DNA of 43,013 nucleotides, taken from NCBI GenBank assembly GCA_016199125.1, contig JACQHH010000011.1:1-43013 (forward strand), read 5' to 3'. Of the stretch, positions 6,207 to 43,013 are shown in pieces (the stretch's first letter is position 1; every line of letters starts with the position of its first letter). A model generated the notes under the pieces. It saw only the letters and a list, made by a program, of their open reading frames with translations. It was not told the DNA's origin and made no database searches. The position numbers and the translations under genes are program-made. This stretch comes from Candidatus Lambdaproteobacteria bacterium (GTDB lineage Bacteria > SAR324 > JACQKK01).

Positions 6207-6848
6207 ATGAGCGAGCCGGTGAAGATCCAGGTGTTTTCCGATTACGTCTGACCGTGGTGCTACCTCAGTACCGGGCGTATTGAGAAATTGCAGCGGGAAT
6301 ACGACATCGAAATCGAATGGGTGCACTTTCCCCTGCACCCGGAAACCCCGCAGGAAGGCGTGACGCTGGAGGCGCTGTTTGCCGGGCGCGACTACGACAT
6401 CGCGGCGGCGCAGCAGCGCATGCAGGGCCTGATGCAGCAGGAGGGCCTGCCCTACAGCGCGCGCAACATGACCTACAACAGCCGCCTGGCGCAGGAACTG
6501 GGCAAGTGGGCCGACAGCATCGGCCGGGGCGAGGCGCTGCACGACGCGCTGTTCCGCGCGTTCTTCGTGGATCTGGTCAACCTGGCCGAGCCGGACAACC
6601 TGCTCAGGATCGCGGCGTCCGTGGGACTGCCCGTGGACCAGGCGCGCGAGGTGCTGGAACAACGCACCTTCAAGGAGCAGGTCAACCGCGATTGGGCGCT
6701 CTCCATGCAACTGGGGATCACCGGCGTGCCCACCTTCGTGGCCGGCGGCTACAAGGTGGTGGGCGCCCAGCCCTACGAGGTGCTGCAGCAACTCATGCAG
6801 GCCGCCGAGGCGCGCCGGCGCGACGCCCCGGCCGGCGACGGCGAGTGA
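6207..6848 (+). CDS. DsbA/FrnE-like thiol:disulfide oxidoreductase with in-frame TGA (6249-6251) at the first redox Cys; probable selenoprotein (U-P-W-C)
   Basis: ATG 6207 with GAGGA RBS 6 nt upstream. Translation is MSEPVKIQVFSDYV-TGA-PWCYLSTGRIEKLQREYDIEIEWVHFPLHPE..., in the same frame as track ORF 6288..6848. FSDxxCPWCY is the canonical DsbA/FrnE N-terminal active site. C-terminal GITGVPTFV is the cis-Pro loop. Confidence 0.7.
6264..6284 (+). promoter_or_regulatory. candidate bacterial SECIS hairpin for the TGA at 6249
   Basis: CUCAGUAC/GUAUUGAG forms an 8-bp stem (one G-U pair) with apical loop CGGGC. The stem starts 12 nt after the TGA and the loop starts 23 nt from the U of UGA. Confidence 0.5.
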
Positions 6849-6897
6849 GCGCGCGGCCAGGGACGCCGGGGCGTCACCCCCTCGGGCGGCCGAGGCG

Positions 6898-7839
6898 CTA
6901 GCGCGTCATGCCCGCGATGGCCAGGGGGGCGGCTTTGCGGCGCGCCGCATAGGTGCGCGCCTGCTCGGCGATGTCGAAGCCGGCCAGGCGGTTCCACCCT
7001 TGCATCAGCTCCCGCGTGACAGGCCCCGGGCGCTCTGCGCCGATGGGCTGCCCATTGAGCGATCCCACCGGCATCAGGCAATAGCTGGTGGTGGTGACGA
7101 AGGCCTCGTCGGCCGTGTGCAGGTCATAGGGCTGCAGGCGCCGCTCGCTCAGCGGCAGTCCCGTCTCGCGGATCAGCTCCAGCGTGGTGTTGCGCGTGAC
7201 CCCTTCCAGGATCGCCCGCGCCTCGGGCGTGGCGATGCGCCCGCCCTTGACCACGAAGATGTTGCCGTAGAGCACCTCGGCCAAGTCGCCGTGCTCGTCC
7301 AGCAGCAGCCCCAGGGCCTTGGAGTTGATGGTCTTGGCCTCGATGTCCGCCAGCACCAGGTGCATGCGGCTCACGCACTTCACCTTGGGGTCCAGCCCGC
7401 CGGAGGCGCTGGCGCGCACGCTGGGGATCACCAGCGGCACGCCCTGGGTGTAGTGCTCCGCCACGCGCTCGAAGAGCAGCGGCTCCATGATCACGCTGGC
7501 AAAGCCCGGCCCAGGGGCCGTGGGCGGGCCGCCGCCGCGGCTGATGGTCTGCGTGACCCAGAAATCGCCGTATTCCTCCACCAGGGGCTGGTTGCGGGCC
7601 ACAGTCTCCTCGGTGATGCGCCCCAGCTCTTGCATGCTCAGGCCGGGCGCGATTCGCGTGTAGGCCAGCGAGCGCGCCAGGCGCTCCAGGTGCTGCGTCA
7701 GGCGGAACACCCGGCCGCCGAAGGTGCGCTCCGTGTCGAACACGGCGTCGCCCAGGCGGTAGCCCCGCTGGTTGAGCGGCATCATGGCCTTGCTGGCCGG
7801 CACGAATTCCCCGTTGACCCAGTACGTGATCTCTTGCAT
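6898..7839 (-). CDS. PLP fold-type IV aminotransferase (branched-chain amino acid / D-amino acid aminotransferase family)
   Basis: 313 aa. Pattern MQEITYWVNGEFVPASKAMMPLNQRGYRLGDAVFDTERTF...VKCVSRMHLVLADIEA...GNIFVVKGGRIATP...ILEGVTRNTTLEL is typical of class IV aminotransferases. Confidence 0.85.
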   Translation of the reverse strand: MQEITYWVNGEFVPASKAMMPLNQRGYRLGDAVFDTERTFGGRVFRLTQHLERLARSLAYTRIAPGLSMQELGRITEETVARNQPLVEEYGDFWVTQTISRGGGPPTAPGPGFASVIMEPLLFERVAEHYTQGVPLVIPSVRASASGGLDPKVKCVSRMHLVLADIEAKTINSKALGLLLDEHGDLAEVLYGNIFVVKGGRIATPEARAILEGVTRNTTLELIRETGLPLSERRLQPYDLHTADEAFVTTTSYCLMPVGSLNGQPIGAERPGPVTRELMQGWNRLAGFDIAEQARTYAARRKAAPLAIAGMTR

Positions 7840-8084
7840 GGCGCGGCATCCTCAATGGTGGTCGCAAAGTTGGGCGTCGCCCATGCCATAGCATATTTGA
7901 CGCCGCGGCGCGCCGGGCGGCATGCGTGTCGCTGTGCGACGCCCGTCGATTCCACCCCGGCCCTGTGGTAGGGTGCCTGGGCGACGGCCTCCCCGCCGCA
8001 TATTGTTCATCGCACGGTGACGCGACACAGTGCCGGTGCACCGCGACGTGCCGCGTGCGATGTCACCCCCCAACGGATGTCCCC

Positions 8085-9422
8085 ATGGCTGGCGGACGCT
8101 ACCCCGATCCCGATTCGCGCTCGGCGCAGCTTCACCGGCGCGCCCAGCAGGTGCTGCCCGGGGGCAACAGCCGGCTCACCGTGTCCATGTCGCCCTATCC
8201 GGTCTATGCCCGGCAAGGCGCCGGCTTCCGCCTGGTGGACGAGGACGGCGTGGAGCGCATCGACTTCTACAACAACGCCACCTCGCTGATCCATGGCCAC
8301 GCGCACCCGGCCATCGTGGAGGCCGTCACGGCGCAGATCGCGCGCGGCACGGCCTTCGCCCATCCCACCGAGGCGGAGATCGCCCTGGCCGAACTGCTCT
8401 GCGCGCGGGCGCCGGGCTTCGAACAGGTGCGCTTCTGCAACTCGGGCACGGAGGCGGTGATGAACGCCATCAAGGCGGCGCGGGCCTTCACGGGCCGCCC
8501 GCGCATCGCCAAGTGCGAGGGAGTCTACCACGGCAGCTACGACCCGGTGGAGGTGAGCCTGGATTCCCCGCCGTCGGCCTGGGGCGTGCCCGATCCGCTG
8601 CCGGTCGCCTACGCCCGGGGCACGCCGCCCGGCGTGCTGCAGGGCGTGGTGGTGCTGCCCTTCAATGACACCGAACGCAGCCGGGCCCTGCTGGAGGCCG
8701 CGGCCGGGGAGCTGGCCGCCGTGGTGATCGACCTGCTGCCCAGCCGCCTGGGCATGGAGCTGGCCTCGCCGGAGTTCCTGGCCATGCTGCGCGAAGTGAC
8801 GCGGCGCCACGGCATCGTGCTCATCGTCGACGAGGTGATCAGCTTCCGTTCGGGGCCCACGGGCCTGCAGGGGGTGCTGGGCGTGCAGCCCGACCTGACG
8901 GCGCTGGGCAAGATCATCGGCGGCGGCTTTCCCGTGGGTGCCGTGGCCGGGCGGCGCGAGATCATGGCCATGTTCGATGCCGGAGCGGGCAAGGCCCCCC
9001 TGCCTCATGCGGGCACTTACAACGGCAATCCGGTGACCATGGTGGCCGGGCGCGCGGCCATGGAACTGCTCACGCCCGACGCCTTCGCGGCCCTCAACGC
9101 CCTGGGGGAGCACACGCGCGCGCTGCTGGAGGCGGTGCTGCGGGAAACCGGCACACCCGGCGCCGCCGCGGGGGTGGGGTCGCTGTTCATGCTGCGCCTG
9201 GGCGCTGCGCCGCCGGGCTACCGCAGCCAATACCCCACGCCGGAGCGGCAGGCACGCAAGCTGGCCCTGGCCCAACATCTGCTGGATCACGGCATCGCCA
9301 TGAATCCCTCGCTGATGGGCGCCATCTCCACGCCCATGACCCCCGCCCAGCCGGCGGCCCTCGCGGCGGCTGTGCGCAGCGGGCTGGCTCAGGCGGCGGC
9401 CCAGGCCCTGCCCCTGCCTTAG
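8085..9422 (+). CDS. class III aminotransferase, glutamate-1-semialdehyde 2,1-aminomutase-like
   Basis: Starts MAGGRYPD... Motifs LPGGNSR, FCNSGTEAVMNAIKAARAFTGR, LIVDEVISFR and LGKIIGGGFPVGA (PLP-binding Lys). Sequence upstream of 8085 in the track ORF looks non-coding. Confidence 0.85.
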   Translation: MAGGRYPDPDSRSAQLHRRAQQVLPGGNSRLTVSMSPYPVYARQGAGFRLVDEDGVERIDFYNNATSLIHGHAHPAIVEAVTAQIARGTAFAHPTEAEIALAELLCARAPGFEQVRFCNSGTEAVMNAIKAARAFTGRPRIAKCEGVYHGSYDPVEVSLDSPPSAWGVPDPLPVAYARGTPPGVLQGVVVLPFNDTERSRALLEAAAGELAAVVIDLLPSRLGMELASPEFLAMLREVTRRHGIVLIVDEVISFRSGPTGLQGVLGVQPDLTALGKIIGGGFPVGAVAGRREIMAMFDAGAGKAPLPHAGTYNGNPVTMVAGRAAMELLTPDAFAALNALGEHTRALLEAVLRETGTPGAAAGVGSLFMLRLGAAPPGYRSQYPTPERQARKLALAQHLLDHGIAMNPSLMGAISTPMTPAQPAALAAAVRSGLAQAAAQALPLP

Positions 9423-9644
9423 CGGCGTGCCGGTCGGCGCAGCGCCCCGGCGGCGCAGCGGTCACGCCATTGACAGCGGGCGCCGCATGGGGAATGAGGA
9501 AGCTGGACAAGCTATCGCGCGCTGCACGGCAGTGCATGCATGGGCGCGGGCACCGGACACCTCACGTTGCCGGCCCGTGCCGACCCGGGCGGAGGCCATC
9601 GGCATTCGATGGCGATCGCTCCGCCGCAACCACGGAGGCGTAAA

Positions 9645-10403
9645 ATGAGCATGGAAGGCAAAGTGGCCGTGATCACCGGCGCGGCACGCGGGCTGGGCGC
9701 GGCGTTCGCGCAGGAACTGAGCGGCATGGGCATGGCCGTGGTCGTATGCGATGTGCGCGACTGCGACGAGACCGCGGCGGCCGTGAAGAAAAGCGGTGGC
9801 AAGGCCCTCTCCTCCAAGGTGGACGTGACCAGCGCCGAGAGCGCCCAGGTCATGGCCGCGGCCGCCGTCAAGGCGTTCGGGCGCATCGACGTGCTGGTGA
9901 ACAATGCCGCCATGTACGGCAACCTGCACAACGGGCGCTTCACCGATCTGGACGAGCAGGAATGGGACGCCTGCATGGCCGTCAATGTGAAGGGCCTGTG
10001 GCAGTGCGCCAAGGCCTGCGTGCCGTCCATGCGCGAGCAGGGCGGCGGCAGCGTGATCAACATCAGCTCCCTGGCCGCCATCTTCGGCATGCCCAACGCC
10101 CTGCACTACGCCACCTCCAAGGGCGCCGTGATCGGCTTCACACGAGCCCTGGCGCGGGAGTTGGGCCGCGACAACATCCGCGTCAACGCCATCGCCCCGA
10201 GCATGGTGTGGACCCCCGGCACGCGCGAGATCATGGGCAACCAGGTGGATCGCTTTGCCGAGGTGGTGCGCAACGGGCAGACGTTGCGTCGCAACCTGGA
10301 GACCGACGACCTGGTGGGCACCGTGGCCTACCTGGCCGGCGACATGAGCAAATTCGTGACCGGCCAGACCATCATGGTCGACGGCGGCACGGTGTACCTG
10401 TAA
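9645..10403 (+). CDS. short-chain dehydrogenase/reductase (SDR), paralog 1
   Basis: GGAGG RBS then ATG 9645. TGAARGLG cofactor motif, NNAA, NISS, catalytic YATSK. Confidence 0.9.
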   Translation: MSMEGKVAVITGAARGLGAAFAQELSGMGMAVVVCDVRDCDETAAAVKKSGGKALSSKVDVTSAESAQVMAAAAVKAFGRIDVLVNNAAMYGNLHNGRFTDLDEQEWDACMAVNVKGLWQCAKACVPSMREQGGGSVINISSLAAIFGMPNALHYATSKGAVIGFTRALARELGRDNIRVNAIAPSMVWTPGTREIMGNQVDRFAEVVRNGQTLRRNLETDDLVGTVAYLAGDMSKFVTGQTIMVDGGTVYL

Positions 10404-10467
10404 CCCGGCCGCGCGTGCGGGAGACGGCCGCCGGCCGGCGGTGCCGGCGATGAGGGAGGGCGTGCGC

Positions 10468-11226
10468 ATGGAGCAGGCGCAGCGGGTGGCCATTGTCACC
10501 GGCGCGGCGCGGGGCCTGGGGGCGGGCTATGCCCAGGCCCTGGCCCAGGCCGGCTACGCCGTCACCGTCACGGACTTGCGGGACTGCGCCGCCACGCGCG
10601 AGTCCATTGCCGCGGCGGGCGGTCGCGTGCTGGCCCTGCACACCGATGTGACCCGCGCCGCCGACACCCGCGCCATGGCCGAGGCCACCGTGGCCGAGTT
10701 CGGCCGCATCGACGTGCTGGTCAACAACGCCGGCGCATTCAGCAACCTCACCAACAGCCGCTTCGAGAAGATCCGCGAGGAGGAGTGGGACCTGGCCTTT
10801 GCCGTCAACGTCAAGGGCCCCTGGCAGTGCGCCAAGGCCGTGGTGCCGCACATGCGCGCCGCGGGCGGCGGCAGCATCGTCAACATCAGCTCCATGGCCT
10901 CGGTCTTCGGGCGGCCCTTTTTCCTGCACTACGGAGCCTCCAAGGGCGCCGTGATCGGCCTCACGCGGGCCCTGGCGCGCGAGCTGGGCCGCGACAACAT
11001 CCGCGTCAACGCCATCGCCCCGGTGATGACCGACACCCCCGGCATGCGCGAGACGGTGGGCGAACACTTTGCCGAGCTGGCCGAGGCCACCCTCAAGAAC
11101 CAGTGCCTGCGCAAGACCCTGGAGGTGAGCGACCAAGTGGGCACGGTGCTCTACCTGGCCGGCGACATGAGCCGCTTCGTCACGGGCCAGACCCTGATGG
11201 TCGACGGCGGCACGGTGTTCCTGTAG
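10468..11226 (+). CDS. short-chain dehydrogenase/reductase (SDR), paralog 2
   Basis: GAGGGAGGG RBS then ATG 10468. TGAARGLG, NNAG, NISS, YGASK. Roughly half of residues are identical to the preceding SDR. Confidence 0.9.
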   Translation: MEQAQRVAIVTGAARGLGAGYAQALAQAGYAVTVTDLRDCAATRESIAAAGGRVLALHTDVTRAADTRAMAEATVAEFGRIDVLVNNAGAFSNLTNSRFEKIREEEWDLAFAVNVKGPWQCAKAVVPHMRAAGGGSIVNISSMASVFGRPFFLHYGASKGAVIGLTRALARELGRDNIRVNAIAPVMTDTPGMRETVGEHFAELAEATLKNQCLRKTLEVSDQVGTVLYLAGDMSRFVTGQTLMVDGGTVFL

Positions 11227-11372
11227 GGACCGCATGCCCATCCCTGCGGGGGCCCGTCGCGCCGGCGCGACCGGCTCCCGCACAGACGCTCTCGCTCCGG
11301 CACGCGGTGCGGGCCGCTGTGCGTTGAAGCGGAATCAAGGGAGTGGAAGATCGTTGAGCGGCACACGCCGAC

Positions 11373-12146
11373 TCATTTCGACCAGTCCGGAATCTGCTTG
11401 GCCTTGAAGGCGGCCATGCCCTGCTGCCCTTCGGGTCCCTCGAACTGGGCCTTGGCCACGGCGCTGGCGGCGCGCAGGCTGTCGGCGAAGCCCATGTGCG
11501 GCACGTCACGCAGAAAGCGCTTGGCCTGGGCGATGGCCCCCGGCCCGCAGGCGGCGATATTGTCCAGGGTCTCCTGCACGCCCGCGTCAAGCCCCTGCGG
11601 CGGCACGACGCGATGCACCAGGTGCACGGCCAGCGCCTTGGACGCGTCGAGCGTCTCGCCAGTGAGGATCATCTGCTTGCCGGAGCCCAGCAACTGCTTG
11701 TGCGCGAACAGCACGCAGATATAGGCCGGCACCAGGCCGTAGCGCACCTCGGTGAGCGTGAAGCGCGCCGTCTCCACCGCCACCGCCACGTCGCAGGCGG
11801 CCACCATGGTCACGCCGCCGCCGTAGCAGTTGCCCTGCACGCGCCCGATGATGGGCTTGGAGGCGTTCCACATGACCTCCATCAACTCGGCGAAGGGCGC
11901 CTGGTCGGTGGGCCGCGCCCCGCCGAAGGTGCGTCCACCGCCGCCCTTCAGGTCAGCCCCCGCGCAGAAGGTGGGTCCCGTGCCGGTGAGCACGATGGCG
12001 CGCACCGCCGGGTCGCCATCGGCGCGCCGCATGCCCTCGGTGAGCGCCTCGGTCATGCCCAGGTTGAGCGTGTTGTGATTCTGGGGCGCTTGCAGCGTGA
12101 TCCACGCGGCCTGCGCGCGAAGCTCGTAACCGATGTGCTCATTCAT
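11373..12146 (-). CDS. enoyl-CoA hydratase/isomerase (crotonase) family protein
   Basis: 257 aa. VRAIVLTGTGPTFCAGADLKGG oxyanion-hole motif and GRVQGNCYGGGVTMVAACD. Confidence 0.9.
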   Translation of the reverse strand: MNEHIGYELRAQAAWITLQAPQNHNTLNLGMTEALTEGMRRADGDPAVRAIVLTGTGPTFCAGADLKGGGGRTFGGARPTDQAPFAELMEVMWNASKPIIGRVQGNCYGGGVTMVAACDVAVAVETARFTLTEVRYGLVPAYICVLFAHKQLLGSGKQMILTGETLDASKALAVHLVHRVVPPQGLDAGVQETLDNIAACGPGAIAQAKRFLRDVPHMGFADSLRAASAVAKAQFEGPEGQQGMAAFKAKQIPDWSK

Positions 12147-12236
12147 GGATGTTCCTGAGGATAAACGCGCGAAACGATGGGCCTTGCAGCGGGCCGCGGA
12201 CGCCCGGTGATCGCAGCCCGCCGGCAGCCGCAGCGC

Positions 12237-17428: not shown

Positions 17429-18202
17429 TCAGACGATACCCATGGAGCCGCCGTCCACGCGGATGGCCTGGCCCGTGACGAAGCTGGCCGCCTCGGAGAC
17501 CAGAAAGCCGGCCACCTTGGCGATTTCGGCCGGCTCGCCCACGCGGTGCAGCGCCGAGTTGCGCAGGAACTTCTCGGTGTGCGCGGGGGGCATGCGGTTG
17601 GTGACGCGGGTCTTGATCACGCCGGGGCAGATGGCGTTGACGCGGATGCCCCGCGGCCCGGCCTCGGCGGCCAGGGACATGGTGAAGTTGATCAGCGCCG
17701 CCTTGCTCAGCCCGTAGATGCTCATCTGCGGCGAAGGCTCGTAGCCCATCACGGAGGAGATGAAGATGATGCTGCCCGCGCCGCGCTGGTACATGGCGGG
17801 CAGGGCGGCGCGGGTCACGTTGAGCGCCCCCTTCAGCGTGACCTCGATCTCCTGGTCGCACTGCTCGGGCAGGATGTCGTGGAACTGCTTCAGCCCCCAG
17901 CGGGCCAGGGTCAGCGCCGCGGCATTGACCAGGGTGTCCAGGCGCCCCTCGGCGGCGATCAGCTTGTCCAGCACCGCCTTGCACTGGGCCTTGTCGGTCA
18001 CGTCCAGCACGGCGGCGCGGGCGTCGAGGCCCTCGGATTTCAATTGCTCCACGGAACGCTGGGCGGGGGCCAGCTCGCGGTCGGTGACCAGCACGCGATG
18101 GCCGCGTTCGCCCATTTCCCGCGCCAGCGCCAGCCCGATTCCCGGATCGTAGTCCGGCCACCAGCCCGCGCCGGTGACCAATGCGATTGGCTTGTCGCCC
18201 AT
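17429..18202 (-). CDS. short-chain dehydrogenase/reductase (SDR)
   Basis: Starts MGDKPIALVTGAG...; NAAA, ISSVMG, YGLSKAAL, VNAICPG. Only the last 257 codons of the 863-aa track ORF are used. Confidence 0.85.
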   Translation of the reverse strand: MGDKPIALVTGAGWWPDYDPGIGLALAREMGERGHRVLVTDRELAPAQRSVEQLKSEGLDARAAVLDVTDKAQCKAVLDKLIAAEGRLDTLVNAAALTLARWGLKQFHDILPEQCDQEIEVTLKGALNVTRAALPAMYQRGAGSIIFISSVMGYEPSPQMSIYGLSKAALINFTMSLAAEAGPRGIRVNAICPGVIKTRVTNRMPPAHTEKFLRNSALHRVGEPAEIAKVAGFLVSEAASFVTGQAIRVDGGSMGIV

Positions 18203-18580
18203 GAATGCTCCTTGTGATTGGGGGGTCGATCTGTGCGCGTCCGCCTTTGTCATCGCCGGATCAGGTCGGTGCCGCGTGCCTGCGGCGGCCGGTGCATCCT
18301 TGCCGCGCCGGCGGCGCGCCCCCTCCGACACACCACAACGCGCGGCGAAGATCAACTGCCGCGCGACGCCGGTTCCGCTTCGCCCCCCTGCCGGTCCGCG
18401 CCCGGCCGCGGAATGCGGCGGAGCGCCGGCGCGCGGACGCGTCCTCGGGTCGCCGGCGTCGCGCGGCCTCCTGGGCGGGATGGACAAGGGCTTGCATGGC
18501 AGAAGGCATTGACATCGCTTGCGTGCCCGGGCGGATCGATGCCGCGCCGGCGCGACGCGTGGACTTTTCCGCCGAACCCC

Positions 18581-20179
18581 ATGTCCGACCAGACGTTGCC
18601 CAACCCAACTCCCGTCACTCCAGCCAACGCCCCCCGCTCGGTATCGGCCTCCATCCGCGGATGGCTGCTGCCGCTGGCGGTGATCGTCGTGACCAGCCTG
18701 ATGGTGTTCCTGTTCACCAGTGTCGTGGATTTTGCGCTCAGCGTCACGGAGGTGAGCTTCTGGCGCACGCTGTTCCTCAGCGACGGCTCGTCGGTGAGCG
18801 GGGATGTCGGCAACCTGGCCGAGGTGCTGATCGGCGTGTTGGGTCTGACGCTGACCGTGGTGGCCATCGTGGTGCAACTGGCCTCGCAACGCTACACGCC
18901 CAAGCTGATCGACCTGTTCCTGGCGGACCGCGTGACCGTGGTGACGTTCCTGGGCATGGTCTTCGCTTCGGTGTATTGCATCTGGATCATCTATTCCATC
19001 CGCAACCACTACACGCCGGTGTTCGGCAGCCTGGTGCTGATTGCCATCACCACCGTCATGCTGGCCTTGCTGATCCCATACTTCCGCTACGTGTTCCAGT
19101 TCCTCACGCCCACCAACATCCTGGAGACCATCGAGCGCAACTTCATGGCGGCCGTGAAGCAGGCGGGCAGCGCCAACGGCGGCGGGCTGGAACGGCAGAA
19201 GCACGCCGTCATCAACAACATCGAGCAGGTCACGGACATCGCCCTGAGCGCGGTGACCCAGGTGGACCGCAACGTCTCGCTGCTGAGCATCAACACGCTG
19301 GCCAGCATCCTGAGCAGCTACATCGAGGCCAAGCGCGCCCTGCCGGCCACGTGGTACCGGCCGCGCAGCGAGCATTTCATCTCCATTTCCGCCGAATTCT
19401 TCGACGATATTTCCGACCGCCGGGTGTGGGTGGAGGCGCGCGGGCTGATGGACCTGGAGTTGATCTTTACCCAGTCCCTGAAGAACATGCCCGATGCCGT
19501 CAGCGCCATCGCCACCAACACGCGCCAGGTGGCCCTGGCCGCGCTGGCCCACGACGACGACGAGTCGGCCTATCTGTGCATCGAGTACTTCAACACCTTC
19601 CTGCGCCGCGCCATCAACGACAAGAACCAGCGCGCGGTGTTTTCCCTGCTCTACCAGTACCGGCGCATGGCCGAGGCCATGCTGGAACGGCGCCTGAACC
19701 TGGCCGAGGAGATCGCCGGGTTCTTCAAGTACTACGGCAACGAGACCCTGCGCGTGGGCATGCCCTTCCTGATGGTCGTGGCGGCCATGGACATCAGCAC
19801 GCTGCTGCAGCGCGGCTACGCCCTGGGCGTCTCGCCCCTGGAGCCCATCCTGGAAAACTTTCTGCAAATGGGGCACCTGCCCGAGCTGGAAAAGGTGGGC
19901 TTCGCCCACAAGGGGGTGACCAAGGCGCACATGATCCTGGCCACGCACCTGCTGGCCCAGGACGGCGATTCGCCCACCCTGCACCGCATCCGCGACAGCC
20001 TGCTGCGCCATTCCCAGCAATGGCTGCGCGAAACGCGCGACGAGCTGCTGGGCGTGACCAAGCAGAAGTTCTGGGAGATCACCGACCGCGGCGGCATCAA
20101 CTTCGAGTACCTGGAGCCGGAAATGAAAACGTGGCTCAACCGCTTCTGCGACGACTACCTCACGACAGCCTCCGCCTGA
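18581..20179 (+). CDS. membrane protein, DUF2254-like (N-terminal 4-TM region plus large soluble domain)
   Basis: Start MSDQTLPN chosen as the first ATG before the TM region. VVQLASQRYTPKLIDLF resembles the DUF2254 signature. The family name is recalled from memory. Confidence 0.6.
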   Translation: MSDQTLPNPTPVTPANAPRSVSASIRGWLLPLAVIVVTSLMVFLFTSVVDFALSVTEVSFWRTLFLSDGSSVSGDVGNLAEVLIGVLGLTLTVVAIVVQLASQRYTPKLIDLFLADRVTVVTFLGMVFASVYCIWIIYSIRNHYTPVFGSLVLIAITTVMLALLIPYFRYVFQFLTPTNILETIERNFMAAVKQAGSANGGGLERQKHAVINNIEQVTDIALSAVTQVDRNVSLLSINTLASILSSYIEAKRALPATWYRPRSEHFISISAEFFDDISDRRVWVEARGLMDLELIFTQSLKNMPDAVSAIATNTRQVALAALAHDDDESAYLCIEYFNTFLRRAINDKNQRAVFSLLYQYRRMAEAMLERRLNLAEEIAGFFKYYGNETLRVGMPFLMVVAAMDISTLLQRGYALGVSPLEPILENFLQMGHLPELEKVGFAHKGVTKAHMILATHLLAQDGDSPTLHRIRDSLLRHSQQWLRETRDELLGVTKQKFWEITDRGGINFEYLEPEMKTWLNRFCDDYLTTASA

Positions 20180-27098: not shown

Positions 27099-27218
27099 TC
27101 GGGCCGCCTGATGGATGATTGGATAAAGGTTTTCGATATCACGAATTACCGGCCCCGTTAAGACTTATTGCGGAAGTATGTACTTGACCGAAGAATTGGC
27201 CGGTCCTAGCGTCCAAAC

Positions 27219-27776
27219 ATGCAACTACCGGACGGAAAGACGGGTGAATTTGTTGTTGGCGTTGCTGCGAGCCTCTTCGCGGCAATGATAATCATGATTT
27301 TCCGATTGTTCACGATGTTGACACTTCCAGACACAATCCTGTTGCTGGTGATCGGAGTCCCTGCGTGCTTCTTTTTCATATTATTAGGGATGAATCAGTA
27401 TCGGAATTGGGCGAGCGGCAGACACGCTAAGCAAGCGATCGAAGATGCGTCAGTCGGTTCGAGGCCCGAGCAGCGCGTGGTTGACCAACTAGCGCGATTA
27501 CGGTCTGACGCAATTCACGATCTTCTAAATCGCCTGGTGGGAAGTGAAGAAGAGTTGCGGCGCTTTGTGGCCGATCATGAAGAATGGCGGCAGCGCGTGC
27601 TTGCGTTATTGCGAGAAAATTTTGCGGAAGCAATCATTCTAACTTTTGATCGCCTTGGCTCTGTGCCAGTCCGCCGATTTGGACATGCCTACAACCCGTT
27701 CCACTCTCATCAGTTGGACATGCTGTCCCTCCGACTCGAAATTATCCAAAGGATCGTAGATCGTTATTCAGCCTGA
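27219..27776 (+). CDS. orphan membrane protein (two N-terminal TM helices plus helical cytoplasmic domain), function unknown
   Basis: The only sizeable ORF in a ~48% GC island (hand count of 27241-27420). Hydrophobic spans VVGVAASLFAAMIIMIF and ILLLVIGVPACFFFILLG. I recognise no family. Confidence 0.55.
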   Translation: MQLPDGKTGEFVVGVAASLFAAMIIMIFRLFTMLTLPDTILLLVIGVPACFFFILLGMNQYRNWASGRHAKQAIEDASVGSRPEQRVVDQLARLRSDAIHDLLNRLVGSEEELRRFVADHEEWRQRVLALLRENFAEAIILTFDRLGSVPVRRFGHAYNPFHSHQLDMLSLRLEIIQRIVDRYSA

Positions 27777-27854
27777 TCTTCTCGGTGTGGGGCCATCCCT
27801 CCTTCTGCCTCTTTTTTCAACGCCTTCTCAACAGCAGATGGCCAATCGGACATT

Positions 27855-27878
27855 GCGGGGCGGCCAGGGCGGCCCCGC
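27855..27878. terminator. GC-rich hairpin (GCGGGGC-N10-GCCCCGC) between convergent genes; also the right copy of the island-flanking repeat
   Basis: 7-bp perfect stem. Lies between the stop of the orphan gene (27776) and the stop of the EamA gene (27882). No clear U-tract follows. Confidence 0.35.
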
Positions 27879-27881
27879 CGC

Positions 27882-28913
27882 TCAGCGCCCGTAGAGGCTG
27901 ACCACCGCCACGCCCAGCAGGGCCACGGCGCCGCCGGCGAAGACGAGCGGGCTGGGCACCTCTCCCAGCCACGCGAAGGCGATGGTCACTGCGGCCACCG
28001 GCATCACGTACATGGCGCTGGTGACCTTGGCCGCCATGGCCCGCGACAGCGCATAGGACCACGTGGCGAAGGCCACGGCGATGGGAAACAGGCCCAGGTA
28101 GATCATGGCCAGCGTGGCCGACAGCGGGGCAGCCAGGATCGCCGCCGGGGCCCGCACCAGGAGCGGCAGCATGACCAATGCCCCGCCCCACACCGCGTAA
28201 CAGGTGAGCTGCAGGCCGCTGTAGCGTCGATGGTAGGGCTTCTGGAACACGAAGAAGATGGACTGGCAGAAGGCGCTGAGCACCACCAGCCCGGCGCCCG
28301 GCTCCAGCCGGAAGCCCCGTCCCTCGCCCAGGGCGATCAGGCCCACGCCGGAGAAGCTCACCAGGATGCCCAGCCAGCCCCACAGGCGCAGCCGCTCGCG
28401 GATGAACAGCCACGCCAGGATGGTGGAGAAGATGGGGATGGTGCCGACCAGGAAACTGCCGGCGCCCGCGCTCACCGAGCGCAGCCCATAGGTCATGGCC
28501 AGCCCGCTGAGGGCAAAGGCCGAGGTGCCGAAGAGCAGACACACCGGCCAGTCGCGCCAGCGGGGCAGGGGCATGCGCACCACGGCGGCGAACACGGCCA
28601 TCCCCAGGGCCCCGTACACCAGCCGCAGCGTGGCGATGTCCAGCGGGGCATAGTGCGGCAGCACGTAGCGCGTGGAGGGAAAGGCCGAGCCCCACAGCAG
28701 GATGGTCACCAGCACGGCCGCCAGCGTGGGCCCGTCGATGCGCCGTGCCGGGCGCGGCCGAGATTCGGCGGCCGCGGCCACCGGCGCGCCCAGGACGCTC
28801 GGCCCCGGGGGCGCATCCTCGGCGGGCGGGAACGATTCCAGGGGGTCCGTCACGGGCGGCGCTCCGGGAGAATGGCGCGAAGACTGCGGGCGCGTGCGCC
28901 ACCCTAGCACCAT
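27882..28913 (-). CDS. EamA/DMT-family transporter
   Basis: About 10 hydrophobic spans with two EamA-like repeats (LLWGSAFPSTRY..., LGLFPIAVAFATWSYAL). The start is uncertain: ATG 28913 gives a ~60-aa Pro-rich N-terminus. Confidence 0.8.
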   Translation of the reverse strand: MVLGWRTRPQSSRHSPGAPPVTDPLESFPPAEDAPPGPSVLGAPVAAAAESRPRPARRIDGPTLAAVLVTILLWGSAFPSTRYVLPHYAPLDIATLRLVYGALGMAVFAAVVRMPLPRWRDWPVCLLFGTSAFALSGLAMTYGLRSVSAGAGSFLVGTIPIFSTILAWLFIRERLRLWGWLGILVSFSGVGLIALGEGRGFRLEPGAGLVVLSAFCQSIFFVFQKPYHRRYSGLQLTCYAVWGGALVMLPLLVRAPAAILAAPLSATLAMIYLGLFPIAVAFATWSYALSRAMAAKVTSAMYVMPVAAVTIAFAWLGEVPSPLVFAGGAVALLGVAVVSLYGR

Positions 28914-36266: not shown

Positions 36267-36634
36267 GGCCAATGTCGTTTCCTTGCCATAAAGGGCCACC
36301 CCCCGGAGAATTCCCGCGCGGGTCGGGGGGCGCCCGCCCGCCGCGGCATCGTCCTGAGGCAAACCACAATTCCGCCGCCTTGTAAACACGGCCCGCGGCG
36401 GGCCGCGGCGCAGGCAGGGCGACCCGCGCGCGGCGTGCCCGGCGGTACGGCGAGGCGCCCGCCCGCGCGCGCCGCCATGTGACGCCGGTCACGCCGGGGC
36501 AAGACCTCCACGTTACAATCGTGGGCGTGGCATTGACTTCTCCCGCCCCCGCGCGCTACCCGTCGTGCTCGAAGGGGTGTGCCCCGCAACGCCCCGCACG
36601 CAACAACGCACCGAACTTCCCGGACACCGGCCCC

Positions 36635-37771
36635 ATGGATTTTCAGTTCAGCCCCGAGCACGAGCAGATCCGCGAAACCGTGCGGCGCTTCTCGCAAAAC
36701 GAGATCGCCCCGCTGGTGGAGGAAGCGGAAGAGACGGAGACCTTTCCGCGCGAGATCTTCAAGAAGTGGGCGGCGCTGGGCCTGCTGGGCGTACGCTACC
36801 CGGAAGAGGACGGCGGCACGGGCTTCGACAAGATCTCCGACTGCATCGTGCGCGAAGAGACCAGCCGCGTGTCCCAGACCTTCGCGGCCACCTGGTCGGC
36901 CCACACGCACCTGGGCATCTGGCCGCTGTGGAAGGGCGGGACGCGGGAGCAGAAGGAGCGCTTCTTCAAGCCCGCGCTGCGCGGGGAGCTGCTCAGCGGC
37001 TTCGGCCTGAGCGAGCCGGACGGCGGCTCGGACATCCGGGCCCTGCGCACGCGCGCGGACAAGGTGGAAGGCGGCTACCGGCTCAACGGCAGCAAGACCT
37101 TCATCACCAACGCCCCCTTTGCCGATTTTCTCATGCTCGCGGCGCGCACGCGCCCGGAGCTGACGGCCGACGCGGTGAGCCTGTTCATCGTGGAGCTGCC
37201 CAACCCGGGCTTCGCCATCAGCAAGCTGAAGAAGGAGAGCATCCGCGGCTCGGAGACGGGCCTGATCTACATCGAGGATGCCTTTGTGCCGGACGACTGC
37301 CTGCTGGGCGGACGCGAAGGCACCTATCCCATCATCCTGGATTCGCTGGCCGAGAACCGGGTGGGCATCTCCGCCAACTGCCTGGGCATGGCCAAGGCCG
37401 CCTTCGAAGCCTCGTGCACCTACGCGCGCACGCGCGTGGTGCGCGGCAAGACCATCGGCAAGTACCAGGCCATCGCGCACAAGCTGGCCAACATGGCGGC
37501 GGAAATCGAGGCCATGCAGTGGCTGGTGTACTACGGCGCCTGGCGCGTGGACCAGGGCACCATGGACATCGTCACCGCGGCCAAGGTGAAGCTCATCGCC
37601 AGCGAGGCGGCGGTGCGCATCAGCGAGGAGGCCATCCGCATCCACGGCGGCTCGGGCCTCATGCGCGAAACCGGGCTGGGCCGCATCCACCGCGACAGCC
37701 TCGTGTACATCATCGGCGAGGGCACCAGCGAGATCCAGCGCAACATCATCGCCCGCGACCTGAACCTCTAG
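36635..37771 (+). CDS. acyl-CoA dehydrogenase
   Basis: Starts MDFQFSPEHEQIRETVRRF...; GFGLSEPDGGSD, YRLNGSKTFITN, IHGGSGLMRE, IGEGTSEIQRNIIAR. Confidence 0.9.
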   Translation: MDFQFSPEHEQIRETVRRFSQNEIAPLVEEAEETETFPREIFKKWAALGLLGVRYPEEDGGTGFDKISDCIVREETSRVSQTFAATWSAHTHLGIWPLWKGGTREQKERFFKPALRGELLSGFGLSEPDGGSDIRALRTRADKVEGGYRLNGSKTFITNAPFADFLMLAARTRPELTADAVSLFIVELPNPGFAISKLKKESIRGSETGLIYIEDAFVPDDCLLGGREGTYPIILDSLAENRVGISANCLGMAKAAFEASCTYARTRVVRGKTIGKYQAIAHKLANMAAEIEAMQWLVYYGAWRVDQGTMDIVTAAKVKLIASEAAVRISEEAIRIHGGSGLMRETGLGRIHRDSLVYIIGEGTSEIQRNIIARDLNL

Positions 37772-37827
37772 GCCCGGAAATCCCGCTTGCAGGGCGCCTT
37801 GGCGCCCCGCGTGGGCGCCGCGCGGCG

Positions 37828-37856
37828 TTGACATCGCCGGGGCAAGGGACGAAAAT
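37828..37856 (+). promoter_or_regulatory. candidate sigma70-type promoter preceding a ~290-nt leader of the thioesterase gene
   Basis: Perfect TTGACA (37828-37833), a 17-nt spacer, then GAAAAT (37851-37856). Confidence 0.4.
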
Positions 37857-38155
37857 CAAAGTGGGGGAACCGCGCCAGCGAGGCGCGGCCCGCGCGCCGG
37901 GCGAGTCCCGGCAGGACTTGGGAAAGGCGACCGATGGGAGGTGTGACAGACGAGCCGCAGGTGTCGCCCCAGAGGCGGCACTGAGTGCCGGAGCAAAGCT
38001 CCGAAGAACGTCCCCGTGAGGACAAGCCGTTGCTCGAGATGACACAACGGCGCCCAAGCCAGCCCTCCGCCGGGACCCCATGGCCAGGGGTCGCGCCGGG
38101 GGGCAATCCATTTCGTGCGCCGGCCCGGGCGCCGTAGACATTCTTGCGAGGTGCC

Positions 38156-38578
38156 ATGGCCATGCTCAAGCGCGAACCCGGCTGGAACCCCTTCGTGGAA
38201 TCCATCGGCCTGCACATTCAATCGGCGGAGGGCGGGACGTGCCGGGGGGAGTTGGAAATCGTGCCGACGCTGCACAACCCCTTCCAGAGCGTGCACGGCG
38301 GCGCCGTGTTCAGCATGGCCGACTGCTGCATGGCCGAGGCCGTGTTCAGCCTGCTCGGCGAGGGCCAGATCTGCAGCACCATCGAGAACAAGGTCAACTT
38401 CATCCACGGCGCCGGCGGCGGGCGCCTGCGCTGCGAAGCCCAGGTGCAGCACCGGGGCCGCAGCACGGCCGTGGCGACTGCCACGGTCAGCGATGGCGCG
38501 CGCGTGATTGCCCGGCTGCAAGGCACCTTTGCCATCCTCGACCGTGCAACGCACGCGACTCCGCCCGGCCGGCCCTAG
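38156..38578 (+). CDS. PaaI-family hotdog thioesterase
   Basis: GAGGTG RBS. SVHGGAVFSMADCCMAEAV and TIENKVNFIHG are typical of the PaaI/4HBT class. Confidence 0.85.
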   Translation: MAMLKREPGWNPFVESIGLHIQSAEGGTCRGELEIVPTLHNPFQSVHGGAVFSMADCCMAEAVFSLLGEGQICSTIENKVNFIHGAGGGRLRCEAQVQHRGRSTAVATATVSDGARVIARLQGTFAILDRATHATPPGRP

Positions 38579-39483
38579 GCCGTGGCCCGCCGCCCGGTGA
38601 CAAAGTAGATGCCGCCGAAGATCAGGGCGATGCCCAGGGCGTGATAAAGGTGCGGCTGCTCGCCCAGGAAGGCCACGGCCATCGCCGCGGTGAAGACCGG
38701 GATCAGGTGCAGGAACAGCCCCGCCCGGTTGGCGCCCACGATGGCCACGGCGCGGTTCCACAGCCAGTAGGCCAGCACCGAGCCCAGCAGGCTCACGTAG
38801 AGGATGGTGCCCAGGGTCGCGGCGTTGTAGGACGAGCGCGCTCCGGCCAGCTCGTCGTAAATGAACACGGGGAGCAGCAGCAGCGTGCCCACCAGGATGA
38901 TCGCCGCCAGCATGGTGGCCCCCGGCAGCTCCGACTTGTAGCGCCGCAGCAGCACGGTGTACGTGCCCCACATGGGCACCGTCACCAGCGCCACCAGGTC
39001 CCCGGGGTTCATGCGCAGATGGAGCAGCACCGAGGGGTCCCCGCGCGAAATGATGGCCAGCACGCCGATCAGCGAGATCAGCACCCCCAGCCCCTGCCGC
39101 GGCGAAAGGCGCTCGCCGATCCACGCCCAGGCGATGAGCACAATCACGATGGGCGTCATGGAACTGATGATGGACACGTTCATGGCCAGGGTCATGCTCA
39201 GCGCCACGTAGAGCAGGGAGTGGAACAGGGCCACGCCCATCGTCCCCAGCACCACGAACACCTTCCAGTCGCGCAGGATGATGCGCCGTGCAGCCCAGAG
39301 CTGCGGCGCCAGCAGCGGCACGAACACCAGCGACGAGACGCCCCAGCGCCAGAAGTTGAGGGAGACGGGCGTGATCTGCTCGTGCACCGCCCGGGCCAGC
39401 AGGATGTTCCCGGCCCAGATCAGGGCCACCAGGGTCAGGTGGGCATAGGGCGACTCCAACAATCGCCGCGGGCGGATCTTCAT
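38575..39483 (-). CDS. EamA/DMT-family transporter
   Basis: Starts MKIRPRRLL.... Ten hydrophobic spans and duplicated EamA repeats. Its stop overlaps the thioesterase stop by 4 nt (CTAG). Confidence 0.85.
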   Translation of the reverse strand: MKIRPRRLLESPYAHLTLVALIWAGNILLARAVHEQITPVSLNFWRWGVSSLVFVPLLAPQLWAARRIILRDWKVFVVLGTMGVALFHSLLYVALSMTLAMNVSIISSMTPIVIVLIAWAWIGERLSPRQGLGVLISLIGVLAIISRGDPSVLLHLRMNPGDLVALVTVPMWGTYTVLLRRYKSELPGATMLAAIILVGTLLLLPVFIYDELAGARSSYNAATLGTILYVSLLGSVLAYWLWNRAVAIVGANRAGLFLHLIPVFTAAMAVAFLGEQPHLYHALGIALIFGGIYFVTGRRATA

Positions 39484-39583
39484 GCAATGACCTTGCTCGG
39501 GACGTGACGCAGGGGGCGGCAGCCCGCGGCAGGTCCTGGGGCCTGCCCACGGGCCGCGGGAGCGCATCGGGGGTGCCGCGGGG

Positions 39584-42091
39584 CTACCAGATGGCCTCGG
39601 CCGCGCGCAGGCGGGCCAGTTCCGCATCGTCCAGGGCCAGCACCTCGCGCAGCACTTCGTCGGTGTGCTCGCCCATCAACGGGGCGCGGGCGCGCACCCC
39701 GTTGGGTCCGCGCGTGAGGCGCCAGGGGATGCCCGTGTGCGTGCGCACCCCCACCTCGGGATGGGGCAGCCGGCTGAAGAAGCCGCGGGCGTGCAAGTGC
39801 GGATTTTCCGCCAGCTCGCCCGTGTCGATCACCGGGAAGGACGGCACGCCGTGGGATTGCAGCACTTCGGTGGCCTCCCAGCGATCCTGGGTGACCGTCC
39901 ACGTGCTGACGATCTCCTCCAGGGCGCGCTCGTTGGCCTTGCGCGCCGTGGCGGTGGCAAAGCGCGCATCGCCGGCCAGGTCCGCGCGGCCCAGCGCCCG
40001 GCACAGGCCCTGCCATTGCGCCTCGTCGGTCACGGCGATGGAGACCCAGGCGTCGTCGCCAACGCAGCGGAAGCAGTTGTGCGGCGCGTACAGCGGGTCG
40101 CGGTTGCCCAGGTAGGGATAGGGCGGATGCCCCAGCGCCGCATTGATCCAGCCTTCGAAGGCGTTGTTGATCATGGACTCCCACAGGGAGACGTCCACGA
40201 TCTGCCCGCCCCCGTGACGCTGGCGGGCCACCAGGGAAGCCAGCACACCATAGGCGGCGTAGATGCCGGCATTGGGGTCGCCATAGCCGGTGGCCGCGTA
40301 CTGGGGCGGCTCGCTGCCCTGGGGTTCGGCCACCAGCCCGGCAAAGGGCACGACCGTGGGGCCGTAGGCGATGTAGTCCTTGAGCGGGCCGGATTGGCCG
40401 AAGCCGGAGACCGTGACCACGATCATGTTGGGGTTGATGCGCCGCAGCTCCTGCGCACCCAGCCCGAAGCGCTCCATGACCCCCGTGGAAAAGTTGCTCG
40501 CCGCCACGTCGCACACCGCCGCCAGGCGCTTGATCAGCGCCAGGCCCTCGGGGTGCTTGATGTCGATCTGCACGCTCTTCTTGGACTGGGCGTACTCGTT
40601 GAAGAAGCCGCCGCGGTTCAGCCCGCCTTCCATGCCTTCGGGATAGATGGCGAAGCGGCGTGTGAAGTCGGGCCGCAGGGGCGATTCGATCTTGATCACC
40701 TCGGCGCCCAGGTGCGCCATCTGCTCGGTGCAGTGCGGCCCGGCCCAGTACCAGGTCAGATCGAGCACGCGCACACCTTGCAGCGGCAGCCGCGCCGAGC
40801 CGTTGCCCGCCGCGCCATTGCCGGCGACCGGACGCTCCTTGGCCGTGGCCGCGGCTTGCTGGCCCGTTTTGGCCGCTGCGGCTTGCCGGCCCGCTTTGGC
40901 CCCCCGGCCGGCGCCGGCGGCCTGCGTGCCGTTGCGCGCGAGCAGACGCGGGAGTTCGGCCCGAGCCTCGTCCAGCCGCGGGGCCGGCAGGCGCACGTCC
41001 CACCAGCGGTGCTGCAGCACGAAGGGCGGGCCGGGCATGGGAATCTCCCCCGCCACCGGATGCTGCTGGCGATGCACAAAGCCGCGGGCCAGCAGATGCG
41101 CGTTCTCGAACAGGTCCGCCGGCCGGTAGAGCATGGTCGCGCAGATGTGGTTCTGCTGCAGGGCATGGAACAGCTCCTCGGCGCGCCACGTGCTCGTCCA
41201 GGCTTCCAGGAGGGCGTTCATCTCCTCCACGTGCGCGCCGCGGTCCCAGCCGGTGCGGAAGCGCTCGGCCTTGGCCCACTCCGGGTCGCCCATCATGCCC
41301 ACCAGGCGCTGCCACTGGTCTTCCTCCGGACAGACAATGAACAGGTAGCCGTCCTGGCAGCGGTAATATTGCACCGGGGCGAACATGCGCGGCTTGTAGC
41401 GGTTGATCACGCGCCCGGCGTAGGTGAATTCCACGAAGTTCGGGCCGTGGAAAGAAGCATTGACCGAGTGCACCGACAGGTCGATGTGCTCACCCTGCCC
41501 GTGCTCCCGCGCGCCGTAGTGGGCGCCCAAAGCCGCCACCGCCCCGTAGACGCCCCCCTGGATGTCCGCCTGGTGCCCGAAGAACTTCACCGGCGGCTGG
41601 CCCTTGATGTCGATGGGATCGGCGAACACCCAGCTCAGCCCGCTGGCGTGGAACAGGTTGAGGTCCACCGCCGCGAAATCCTTGTAGGGGCCGGTGAGGC
41701 CATAGGGCGTGATGCTGAGCACGACCAGGCGCCGATTGAGCGCCGCAAAGCGCTCGTAGTCCAGGCGCAGGCGCGTCATCTCGCGGGGAATGAAATTGTG
41801 CAGCAGAATGTCGGCCTGCGCCGCCAGCTCGTCCAGGGCGCGCTGGCCCGCGGCGGTCTCCAGGTCCAGCACCACGGAGCGCTTGTTGGCGTTGAGCACC
41901 AGGAACAGGCCGCTGGCCTCGGGGTCGGGCTTGCCGTGGGGAAAGGGGCCCCGCTGGCGGGCCGCGTCGCCTGCGGGCGGCTCCACCTTGACCACGGTCG
42001 CGCCCAGGTCGGCCAGCAGCTTGCCCGCCGCCGGCGCCGAGACCCAGCCCCCCAGCTCCACCACGTTCAGTCCTTGCAAGCCACTTCCCAT
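39584..42091 (-). CDS. tandem-fused family III CoA-transferase (two CaiB/BaiF domains in one 835-aa chain)
   Basis: GGAGGTG RBS. N-half: GLNVVELGGWVSAPAAGKLLADLGATVVKVEPP...HQADIQGG. Ala/Gly/Gln-rich linker (~residues 385-435). C-half: VRVLDLTWYWAGPHCTEQMAHLGAEVIKIESP...GYGDPNAG. Both halves keep the Asp-containing motif. Confidence 0.85.
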   Translation of the reverse strand: MGSGLQGLNVVELGGWVSAPAAGKLLADLGATVVKVEPPAGDAARQRGPFPHGKPDPEASGLFLVLNANKRSVVLDLETAAGQRALDELAAQADILLHNFIPREMTRLRLDYERFAALNRRLVVLSITPYGLTGPYKDFAAVDLNLFHASGLSWVFADPIDIKGQPPVKFFGHQADIQGGVYGAVAALGAHYGAREHGQGEHIDLSVHSVNASFHGPNFVEFTYAGRVINRYKPRMFAPVQYYRCQDGYLFIVCPEEDQWQRLVGMMGDPEWAKAERFRTGWDRGAHVEEMNALLEAWTSTWRAEELFHALQQNHICATMLYRPADLFENAHLLARGFVHRQQHPVAGEIPMPGPPFVLQHRWWDVRLPAPRLDEARAELPRLLARNGTQAAGAGRGAKAGRQAAAAKTGQQAAATAKERPVAGNGAAGNGSARLPLQGVRVLDLTWYWAGPHCTEQMAHLGAEVIKIESPLRPDFTRRFAIYPEGMEGGLNRGGFFNEYAQSKKSVQIDIKHPEGLALIKRLAAVCDVAASNFSTGVMERFGLGAQELRRINPNMIVVTVSGFGQSGPLKDYIAYGPTVVPFAGLVAEPQGSEPPQYAATGYGDPNAGIYAAYGVLASLVARQRHGGGQIVDVSLWESMINNAFEGWINAALGHPPYPYLGNRDPLYAPHNCFRCVGDDAWVSIAVTDEAQWQGLCRALGRADLAGDARFATATARKANERALEEIVSTWTVTQDRWEATEVLQSHGVPSFPVIDTGELAENPHLHARGFFSRLPHPEVGVRTHTGIPWRLTRGPNGVRARAPLMGEHTDEVLREVLALDDAELARLRAAEAIW

Positions 42092-42370
42092 CGCACCTCC
42101 AACGCCTGCGCGTGACCGGCGGAAACCGGCCGCGCGGGCCTCTGATTGACTCCCCCCAATCTTTTTATTGAGCGGGTTTGCGGCCCCGCTTGTCAAGCAT
42201 GGAATGCCCTCAAGCGCGCAAATGCGGCAGAATTGCACGGCTTTGCAGGGGCCCGCGGCGCTCACGTTGCCGGGTGGCGCCGAGGGTTCAGTTTCCGCGC
42301 GGCGATGTGCTATGTACATCCATCACTTGACGAGACTGAGGCACAGGCAACCCACCCCCCGGAGAGCATC

Positions 42371-43013
42371 ATGGGCGCACAGGGCAACGAGGTCATCTAC
42401 GACGTGGTCTGGCCACGCGGCGAAAAATCCCTCACCGTCACGCAACTGGCCAAGCGGCTGGATTCCCTGGAAGGCAAGACCGTCGCGGAGCTGTGGGACT
42501 ACCTGTTCCGTGGCGACGAAATCTTTCCCATCCTGGAAGAGGAGCTGACCAAGCGCTACCCCGGCATCAAGTTCGTGCGCTACGACACCTTCGGCAGCAC
42601 CCACGGCGACGAGGAGCACGCCGTGCTGGCCGCGCTGCCGGCCCAGCTCAAGGAGCTGGGCGTGGATGCGGTAATCTCCGGCATGGCCTGCTGAGGGAGC
42701 TGTACGCCCGCCGTGCTGCGGGCAAGCGCCATTGCCGAAGGGGCCGGAGTGCCCACCGCCTCGCTGACCTGCGAGGGCTTTCTGGGCCAGGCGGCCACGA
42801 CCAGCTCGGGGCTGGGCATGCCCAACCTGCCCGTGGCCAAGGTGCCCGGGCACGTGGACGTGCAGACCCCCGAGGAGCTGCGGGCCAACGTGGTGGCCGT
42901 CACGCTGGATGCCGTGGTCAGCAACCTCACGGTGGATCCGGACGAGGTGCAGGCCGTCTCCGACCCGGGGCCCGGCGACATCGTGTTCCAGGGCACCTTC
43001 GAGGAGGTGATCA
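42371..43013 (+). CDS. C-U-G-S-C motif protein with in-frame TGA (42692-42694); probable selenoprotein of the 'UGSC' type; 3' end lies outside the window
   Basis: GGAGAG RBS then ATG 42371. ...GVDAVISGMAC-TGA-GSCTPAVLRASAIAEGAGVPTASLTCEGFLGQ...NLPVAKVPGHVDVQTPEEL.... The frame stays open for ~106 codons after the TGA up to base 43013, with the same GC3-rich codon usage. Confidence 0.7.
42706..42723 (+). promoter_or_regulatory. candidate bacterial SECIS hairpin for the TGA at 42692
   Basis: GCCCGC/GCGGGC forms a perfect 6-bp G-C-rich stem with loop CGUGCU. The stem starts 11 nt after the TGA and the loop starts 20 nt from the U of UGA. Confidence 0.55.

Follow-up and report, generated by a model that had tools for sequence, protein, structure and literature searches.

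Two in-frame TGA codons of a SAR324-like contig are probable selenocysteine codons in members of two known selenoprotein families

A contig assigned to Candidatus Lambdaproteobacteria of the SAR324 lineage (JACQHH010000011.1), which was analyzed over its entire length of 43,013 bp and is called the window below, has a GC content of ~69% and carries two genes that are each interrupted by one in-frame TGA with an RNA hairpin directly behind it. The first (site 1) encodes a DsbA/FrnE-like thiol-disulfide oxidoreductase, and the second (site 2) is the 5ʹ part of a gene of the UGSC family. We concluded that very probably both TGAs encode selenocysteine (Sec), that the two genes are intact and belong to established selenoprotein families, and that the organism is Sec-competent. 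The biology itself is already described; the window adds one new member, mis-annotated so far, to each of two known families of selenoproteins. An earlier reading made from the sequence alone had proposed that both TGAs encode Sec. This proposal is now strongly supported by conservation, covariation, frozen codons, the ratio of nonsynonymous to synonymous substitution rates (dN/dS), Cys-containing homologues and published families.

The positions and anatomy given by the sequence-only reading for both sites were reproduced by translation and folding (Table 1). At site 1, the frame starts at an ATG with the ribosome-binding site GAGGA 8 nt on its 5ʹ side, encodes MSEPVKIQVFSDYV (14 codons), passes through the TGA, continues with PWCYLSTGRIEKL... 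and ends at a stop codon at 6846-6848. Its translation across the TGA is ...FSDYV-U-PWC-YLSTGRIEKL, and no signal peptide was found in the gene product. The protein matched PF01323 (DSBA) with E = 2.6e-36 and 125.6 bits against a cutoff of 25.6, with the UxxC active site in place. Among solved structures the best match was FrnE of Deinococcus radiodurans (PDB 5CNW, E = 7e-29, residues 2-208), and in this alignment the residue encoded by the TGA is paired with the first Cys of the CPWC motif.

At site 2, 107 codons ending in ...VISGMAC are followed by the TGA and then by GSCTPAVLRAS..., a frame that stays open to the contig end. The protein matched PF24696 over profile positions 1-171 of 172 (E = 1.3e-30, 107.2 bits against a cutoff of 25). 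The long form of UGSC proteins is defined by ~300 conserved residues C-terminal to the UGSC domain. Of the window protein, the 106 residues after the predicted Sec align with the long-form relatives P0010, P0044, P0051 and P0069 before the gene leaves the contig. No relative of the UGSC protein was found in the PDB, and for its C-terminal domain neither a Pfam family nor a PDB relative was found. At both sites, the GC content of third codon positions (GC3) is 0.86-0.92 on either side of the TGA.

Both hairpins are minimum-free-energy structures. Hairpin 1 begins after a 12-nt spacer (6252-6263) and has the stem CUCAGUAC/GUAUUGAG (8 bp, one of them G.U) with the loop CGGGC; the distance from UGA to loop is 20 nt, and the folding energy is -7.5 kcal/mol. 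Hairpin 2 begins after an 11-nt spacer and has the stem GCCCGC/GCGGGC (6 bp) with the loop CGUGCU, a UGA-to-loop distance of 17 nt and a folding energy of -11.2 kcal/mol. The published consensus of the bacterial Sec insertion sequence (bSECIS) has a loop of 3-9 nt, a stem of 4-16 bp, a UGA-to-loop distance of 16-37 nt and a minimum free energy of -7.5 kcal/mol or lower, and its loop has a G within the first two positions, followed by G or U (PMC13188914). Both hairpins agree with this consensus.

Table 1. Features of the two TGA-containing genes in the window
Feature	Position	Strand	Remarks
DsbA/FrnE-like thiol-disulfide oxidoreductase gene	6207..6848	+	213 codons including predicted Sec; active site U-P-W-C; PF01323
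In-frame TGA, predicted Sec residue 15	6249..6251	+	same codon TGA in relatives
Predicted SECIS hairpin 1	6264..6284	+	stem 6264-6271/6277-6284, loop 6272-6276
UGSC-family selenoprotein gene (predicted), 5ʹ part	42371..43013	+	214 codons, runs off contig end; motif C-U-G-S-C; PF24696
In-frame TGA, predicted Sec residue 108	42692..42694	+	same codon TGA in relatives
Predicted SECIS hairpin 2	42706..42723	+	stem 42706-42711/42718-42723

The codon and the hairpin are conserved together far beyond the window. For the DsbA gene we collected the 80 nearest loci from a scan of one genome per species, and TGA stands at the same codon in 79 of them and TGC in one. These loci come from Alpha-, Beta- and Gammaproteobacteria, Rokubacteria/Methylomirabilota, SAR324, Acidobacteriota, Planctomycetota, Verrucomicrobiia, Dormiibacterota and Cybelea. 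The hairpin is near-invariant in the form CUCAGUAC-CG(G/U)GC-GUAUUGAG, and where its stem changes, the pairing is kept: at pair 21-31, 64 distinct sequences have U-A and six have C-G, at pair 19-33, 65 have A-U and one has G-C, and neither of these pairs is ever broken; at pair 20-32, 67 have G.U and two have G-C. Within the hairpin, Leu is always encoded by CTC and Arg by CGT (100% each), Ser by AGT in 92% and Ile by ATT in 89%. Outside the hairpin, where Leu, Pro and Arg residues are also invariant, 4-6 codons are in use, so that the synonymous freezing is confined to the element.

For the UGSC gene, the 80 nearest metagenome loci were found with an alignment of the N-terminal part, the half-protein alignment being too gappy. 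TGA was present at the same codon in all 80, with homology that spans it in every case. The hairpin GCCCGC-CGUG(U/C)U-GCGGGC was likewise found at 11-nt spacing in all 80 loci. Its outer pair, 15-32, is G-C in 47 sequences, A-U in five and G.U in three, and is never broken. Within this hairpin, Pro is encoded by CCC, Ala by GCC, Val by GTG and Arg by CGG in 100% of the sequences, and here too the freezing is limited to the element.

The contig most closely related to the window is L002, an ENA entry labelled SAR324 JACQHH01, which shares ~7 kb of synteny at 82-89% nucleotide identity and has the DsbA TGA as well. Apart from L002, no gene neighbourhood common to the window and the related loci was found. 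Downstream of the TGA, dN/dS is 0.17 for the DsbA gene (against L002) and 0.13 for the UGSC gene (against the relative L083), which indicates that the sequence after each TGA is translated. Hairpin 1 is nucleotide-identical in the window and L002, while the flanking synonymous sites differ.

Homologues with Cys at the Sec-aligned position complete the comparison. In the DsbA family these are the proteins P0123, P0144, P0169, P0213 and P0194, the locus L043, and FrnE; at the nucleotide level, the Cys-form loci L043, L166, L167 and L168 have TGC or TGT at this codon. Taken together, the conservation of TGA and hairpin, the covariation, the selection, the Cys homologues and the Sec machinery beside these genes in some relatives are decisive for reading the two TGAs as Sec.

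Some predicted homologues have other residues at the position of the predicted Sec. The DsbA homologue P0125 has Arg (DYVRPWC), and the UGSC homologues P0001 and P0005 have Arg-Arg (MARRGSC) or Leu (MACLGSC). Either the TGA has truly been replaced in these genes, by CGA or by a codon for Leu, or the residues are artefacts of translation in the source data. Separately, at ~420-520 of the relative L051 we noticed a second, truncated copy of the 5ʹ end of the DsbA gene, TGA included (FLLEIFSDYV*PWCYLSTVRNEGG...), ~1.1 kb upstream of the intact gene.

If Sec insertion follows the pathway established for bacteria, the hairpin 11-12 nt 3ʹ of each UGA would be a bacterial SECIS. It would bind the complex SelB.GTP.Sec-tRNA(Sec) through its apical part and bring it to the ribosomal A site when this is occupied by the UGA, and Sec would thereby take the position of the nucleophilic Cys in a redox motif of the type U-x-x-C. 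The product of gene 1 would be a cytoplasmic FrnE-type oxidoreductase of the DsbA fold with the active site UPWC, and that of gene 2 a UGSC protein with a putative thioredoxin-like redox domain followed by a long uncharacterised C-terminal domain. The geometry common to both hairpins would be what one SelB would require.

Several observations weigh against the Sec reading, and the first group concerns the hairpins. The sequence-only reading had argued that two hairpins of the same geometry in 43 kb would be unlikely by chance, and this argument turned out to be weak when taken alone. Hairpins with spacers of 10-13 nt, stems of 6 bp or more and loops of 4-7 nt followed 30 of the 1011 TGA trinucleotides of the window (3.0%), or 1.9% when a G was required in the first two loop positions. 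Arbitrary positions gave hairpins of this type at the same rate. The energy of hairpin 1 lies exactly at the threshold of -7.5 kcal/mol and is borderline, and the folding energies were not better than those of dinucleotide shuffles (z = -0.8 to +1.3). The GC-rich Cys-type DsbA genes L043, L166 and L168 also form stable hairpins, of -10 to -14 kcal/mol, after TGC or TGT. Formally, one of them would pass as a bSECIS, namely the hairpin of L043, which has 7 bp and the loop CGU at a distance of 26 nt from the codon; the consensus is thus a permissive filter. A contrast in folding energy between Sec and Cys forms of DsbA was tried as a criterion and dropped as non-discriminating, the Cys forms ranging from -3.4 to -13.9 kcal/mol and the Sec forms averaging -7.7 kcal/mol. 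Searches against Rfam gave no SECIS-type match, either in the whole window at the gathering threshold or at the two sites at the E-value threshold. A single TGA with a hairpin is thus unremarkable in this DNA, and hairpin geometry alone is weak evidence.

The two sites are set apart from other TGAs in the window by their coding context. Four TGAs have coding-like composition on both sides; those at 535 and 12743 are ordinary gene ends, and the other two are the candidates. Both of these carry a hairpin and a context of the Cys-x-x-Cys type, and the chance that both would have hairpins is ~0.03 x 0.03. This filter was a loose one. Strict filters of coding composition missed both sites because the hairpin codons locally distort the GC content of second and third codon positions, and the looser filter recovered them together with the two ordinary stops.

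The second group concerns the UGSC gene. It is incomplete at the contig end, and its protein scored 54.4 bits with the NCBIfam model NF041046, 'UGSC family (seleno)protein', for which the equivalog cutoff of 125 was not reached. The query for this model had U replaced by C and was a probable long-form protein cut by the contig end. By this profile the protein is a relative of the family but no equivalog.

The third group concerns the machinery and the lineage. None of selA, selB, selC and selD was found within the 43-kb window, in which no tRNA and no Rfam match were detected either. Two marine SAR324 single-cell genomes were classed as 'orphan SelD' in a survey of 2016 (PMC5029168). In the SAR324 metagenome-assembled genome GCA_022574555.1 (contig JACZRV010000072.1, locus L165, 4273-4720), the UGSC gene is disrupted: ...GMAC-TGA-GSCTP is followed, in another frame, by ...EPEPRDIVFEG, which normally stands ~85 codons further on, with loss of the SECIS. 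The disruption is either an internal deletion, which would make the gene a pseudogene, or an error of the assembly. The SAR324 phylum may therefore differ internally in its use of Sec.

These last points agree with the main residual alternative, namely that the lineage inherited or acquired both genes and later lost Sec decoding, so that they are now truncated pseudogenes. We consider it improbable that the window genes are such relics. Both reading frames are intact past the TGA, and both show a strong GC3 bias, in two independent genes. The low dN/dS downstream of the TGAs does not fit with decay, nor does the identity of hairpin 1 with that of L002 next to synonymous sites that have changed.

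We infer the presence of Sec machinery and active Sec decoding in the source organism. Machinery in relatives was searched for with tblastn, using SelA, SelB and SelD of E. coli, and with ARAGORN for tRNA-Sec. In L074 (4-966) and L076 (5-1006), the C-terminus of SelB and then a tRNA-Sec(UCA) lie immediately upstream of a Sec-type DsbA gene, and in L029 a tRNA-Sec (68-163) lies upstream of such a gene. These three loci belong to Burkholderiales-like or uncultured metagenome-assembled genomes. In the metagenome contig L144, SelA (957-2090) adjoins a UGSC gene. These arrangements suggest that the client genes for DsbA and UGSC are physically linked with the Sec machinery in some relatives.

A still less probable explanation is that the TGAs are ordinary stops, with a short upstream frame and a separately initiated downstream frame that encode split proteins, which is how gene callers annotate them. 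Standard gene callers stop at TGA; they thereby cut the active site from the DsbA gene and break the UGSC gene into two halves. The recorded gene call P0121 begins only at 6288, past the TGA, and thus without the active site. DsbA relatives in the protein database fall into two classes, full-length Cys forms with CPWC and N-terminally truncated entries. The database relatives of UGSC are mostly half-proteins that either end exactly in ...GMAC or start with MLRASA just past the motif. If the stops were real, the upstream product of the DsbA gene would be a peptide of 14 residues and the downstream product would have no CxxC active site. Homology is, however, continuous across the TGA with the full-length Cys forms and with FrnE, and the TGA is invariant in ~160 relatives, in which a true stop could have drifted to TAA or TAG. 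The mis-annotation claimed by the sequence-only reading is real and holds for P0121 and for most UGSC entries. Mis-annotation of TGA-split genes is a well-known problem.

Two further explanations are highly improbable. A genome-wide reassignment of TGA to Trp or Gly, for which we saw nothing specific, would conflict with the stop codons of the window: TGA is the usual terminator, ending ~19 of 31 credible genes at positions that match their homologues, which indicates that the genetic code is standard. In addition, there are only two in-frame TGAs, and both align with Cys rather than with Trp or Gly. Sequencing or assembly errors are just as hard to credit; one base change would be enough to turn TGC or TGT into TGA, but the identical TGA is found in ~160 independent assemblies.

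With both TGAs read as Sec codons, two wider readings can be considered, which we regard as speculative and rather unlikely. In one, the Sec-form FrnE/DsbA gene would depend on the Sec trait as a client and move horizontally. It is based on the Sec-form protein, which has 60-67% identity across ~10 phyla, with the SECIS nucleotides almost frozen, and on the position of the gene directly behind selB and tRNA-Sec in some Burkholderiales-like metagenome-assembled genomes. A cassette of selB, selC and the Sec-form dsbA, or the gene alone, may spread between Sec-competent genomes, and the SAR324-like organism may have acquired it in this way. In the other, the loop start CG(U/G)G and the spacing of 11-12 nt that two unrelated families share would possibly reflect a recognition code of SelB that is narrower than the published consensus.

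No third TGA-split gene was found in the window when the gaps of the gene map were inspected and the coding-composition filter for TGAs was applied. An apparent third candidate at 17431 was rejected as the regular stop of a short-chain dehydrogenase gene. This gene (17429 to ~18200, minus strand) lies inside an open frame of 954 codons that overlaps the plus-strand gene at 18218-20179. Long spurious overlapping frames are frequent in this GC-rich contig. Another example is the 910-codon frame at 3293-6025 (minus strand), which is partly spurious; by synteny with L002, the gene for a major facilitator superfamily transporter located there ends near 4700. By the same synteny, a luciferase-like monooxygenase gene lies at 5098-6034 (plus strand), directly upstream of the DsbA gene.

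Other regions of the window were recorded as well. The plus-strand genes at 792-1334 and 1569-2102 are a paralogous pair of ~180 codons each with near-identical, signal-peptide-like N-termini (MRHLLGVIAA.AIVLWA.TPAHA), and a third copy is present in L002. The region at ~27100-27900 has a GC content of ~0.61 against 0.69, and its frame at 27219-27776 lacks the GC3 bias of the genome; this may be foreign or non-coding DNA. On the minus strand at 39584-42319, a gene of 911 codons is divergent from the UGSC gene and, judged by eye from its translation, looks like two fused CoA-transferase domains of family III (CaiB/BaiF type). It stands beside UGSC at only one of 80 related loci, so that the pairing is not conserved.

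The analysis identifies an uncultured, high-GC, SAR324-like organism as a probable user of selenocysteine, and two gene models are corrected: a DsbA entry without its active site and a split UGSC gene. It also provides a worked example of GC-rich DNA in which a TGA followed by a hairpin has no diagnostic value, whereas conservation across genomes does. For the selenoprotein field, neither a new family or mechanism nor a further open question results from it.

Both families have been described before. In 2005, Zhang, Fomenko & Gladyshev described DsbA-like selenoproteins (COG2761, UxxC) in data from the Sargasso Sea (PMC1088965). The analysis of the Global Ocean Sampling data by Zhang & Gladyshev in 2008 included 'DsbA 1' with 63 sequences and the 'UGSC-containing protein', the latter with 255 Sec against 21 Cys forms and fused to a domain called 'Unknown_1' (PMC2398784). 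A ranking of bacterial selenoprotein families has both DsbA and UGSC in its top 20 (PMC5029168), and both are contained in the selenoprotein catalogue of 2026 (PMC13188914).

The DsbA gene of the window corresponds to form 1 of the DsbA-like selenoproteins, of which NIP15863.1 is a published representative, in its PF01323 domain, in the predicted Sec for the first Cys of CPWC, and in the position of the putative SECIS directly downstream within the coding sequence. Cys forms of this family are widespread, and nothing essential differs in the window gene, which comes from a SAR324-like contig of 69% GC whereas form 1 was published from marine surface plankton. The UGSC protein shares with its family, in which Sec predominates over Cys, the C-U-G-S-C motif and the full-length match to PF24696, and probably also the fusion to a conserved uncharacterised C-terminal domain like 'Unknown_1'. 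It differs in its low score against the NF041046 cutoff (54 against 125 bits) and in being cut by the contig end.

The predicted SECIS elements resemble the fdhF-type SECIS of E. coli in being stem-loops within the reading frame, with the upper stem 11-12 nt after the UGA and a small loop that has G followed by G or U. The minimal fdhF element is said to require a position 11 nt downstream, as Liu et al. reportedly found in 1998. The window hairpins have no sequence similarity to the fdhF element and no evident bulged U, and their binding by SelB is predicted. FrnE of D. radiodurans is a Cys-based protein with a C-terminal CxxxxC tail. The window protein has an unrelated tail, rich in Arg, Asp and Ala, and a predicted Sec instead of Cys, but its active site is in register with the CPWC of this cytoplasmic disulfide isomerase.

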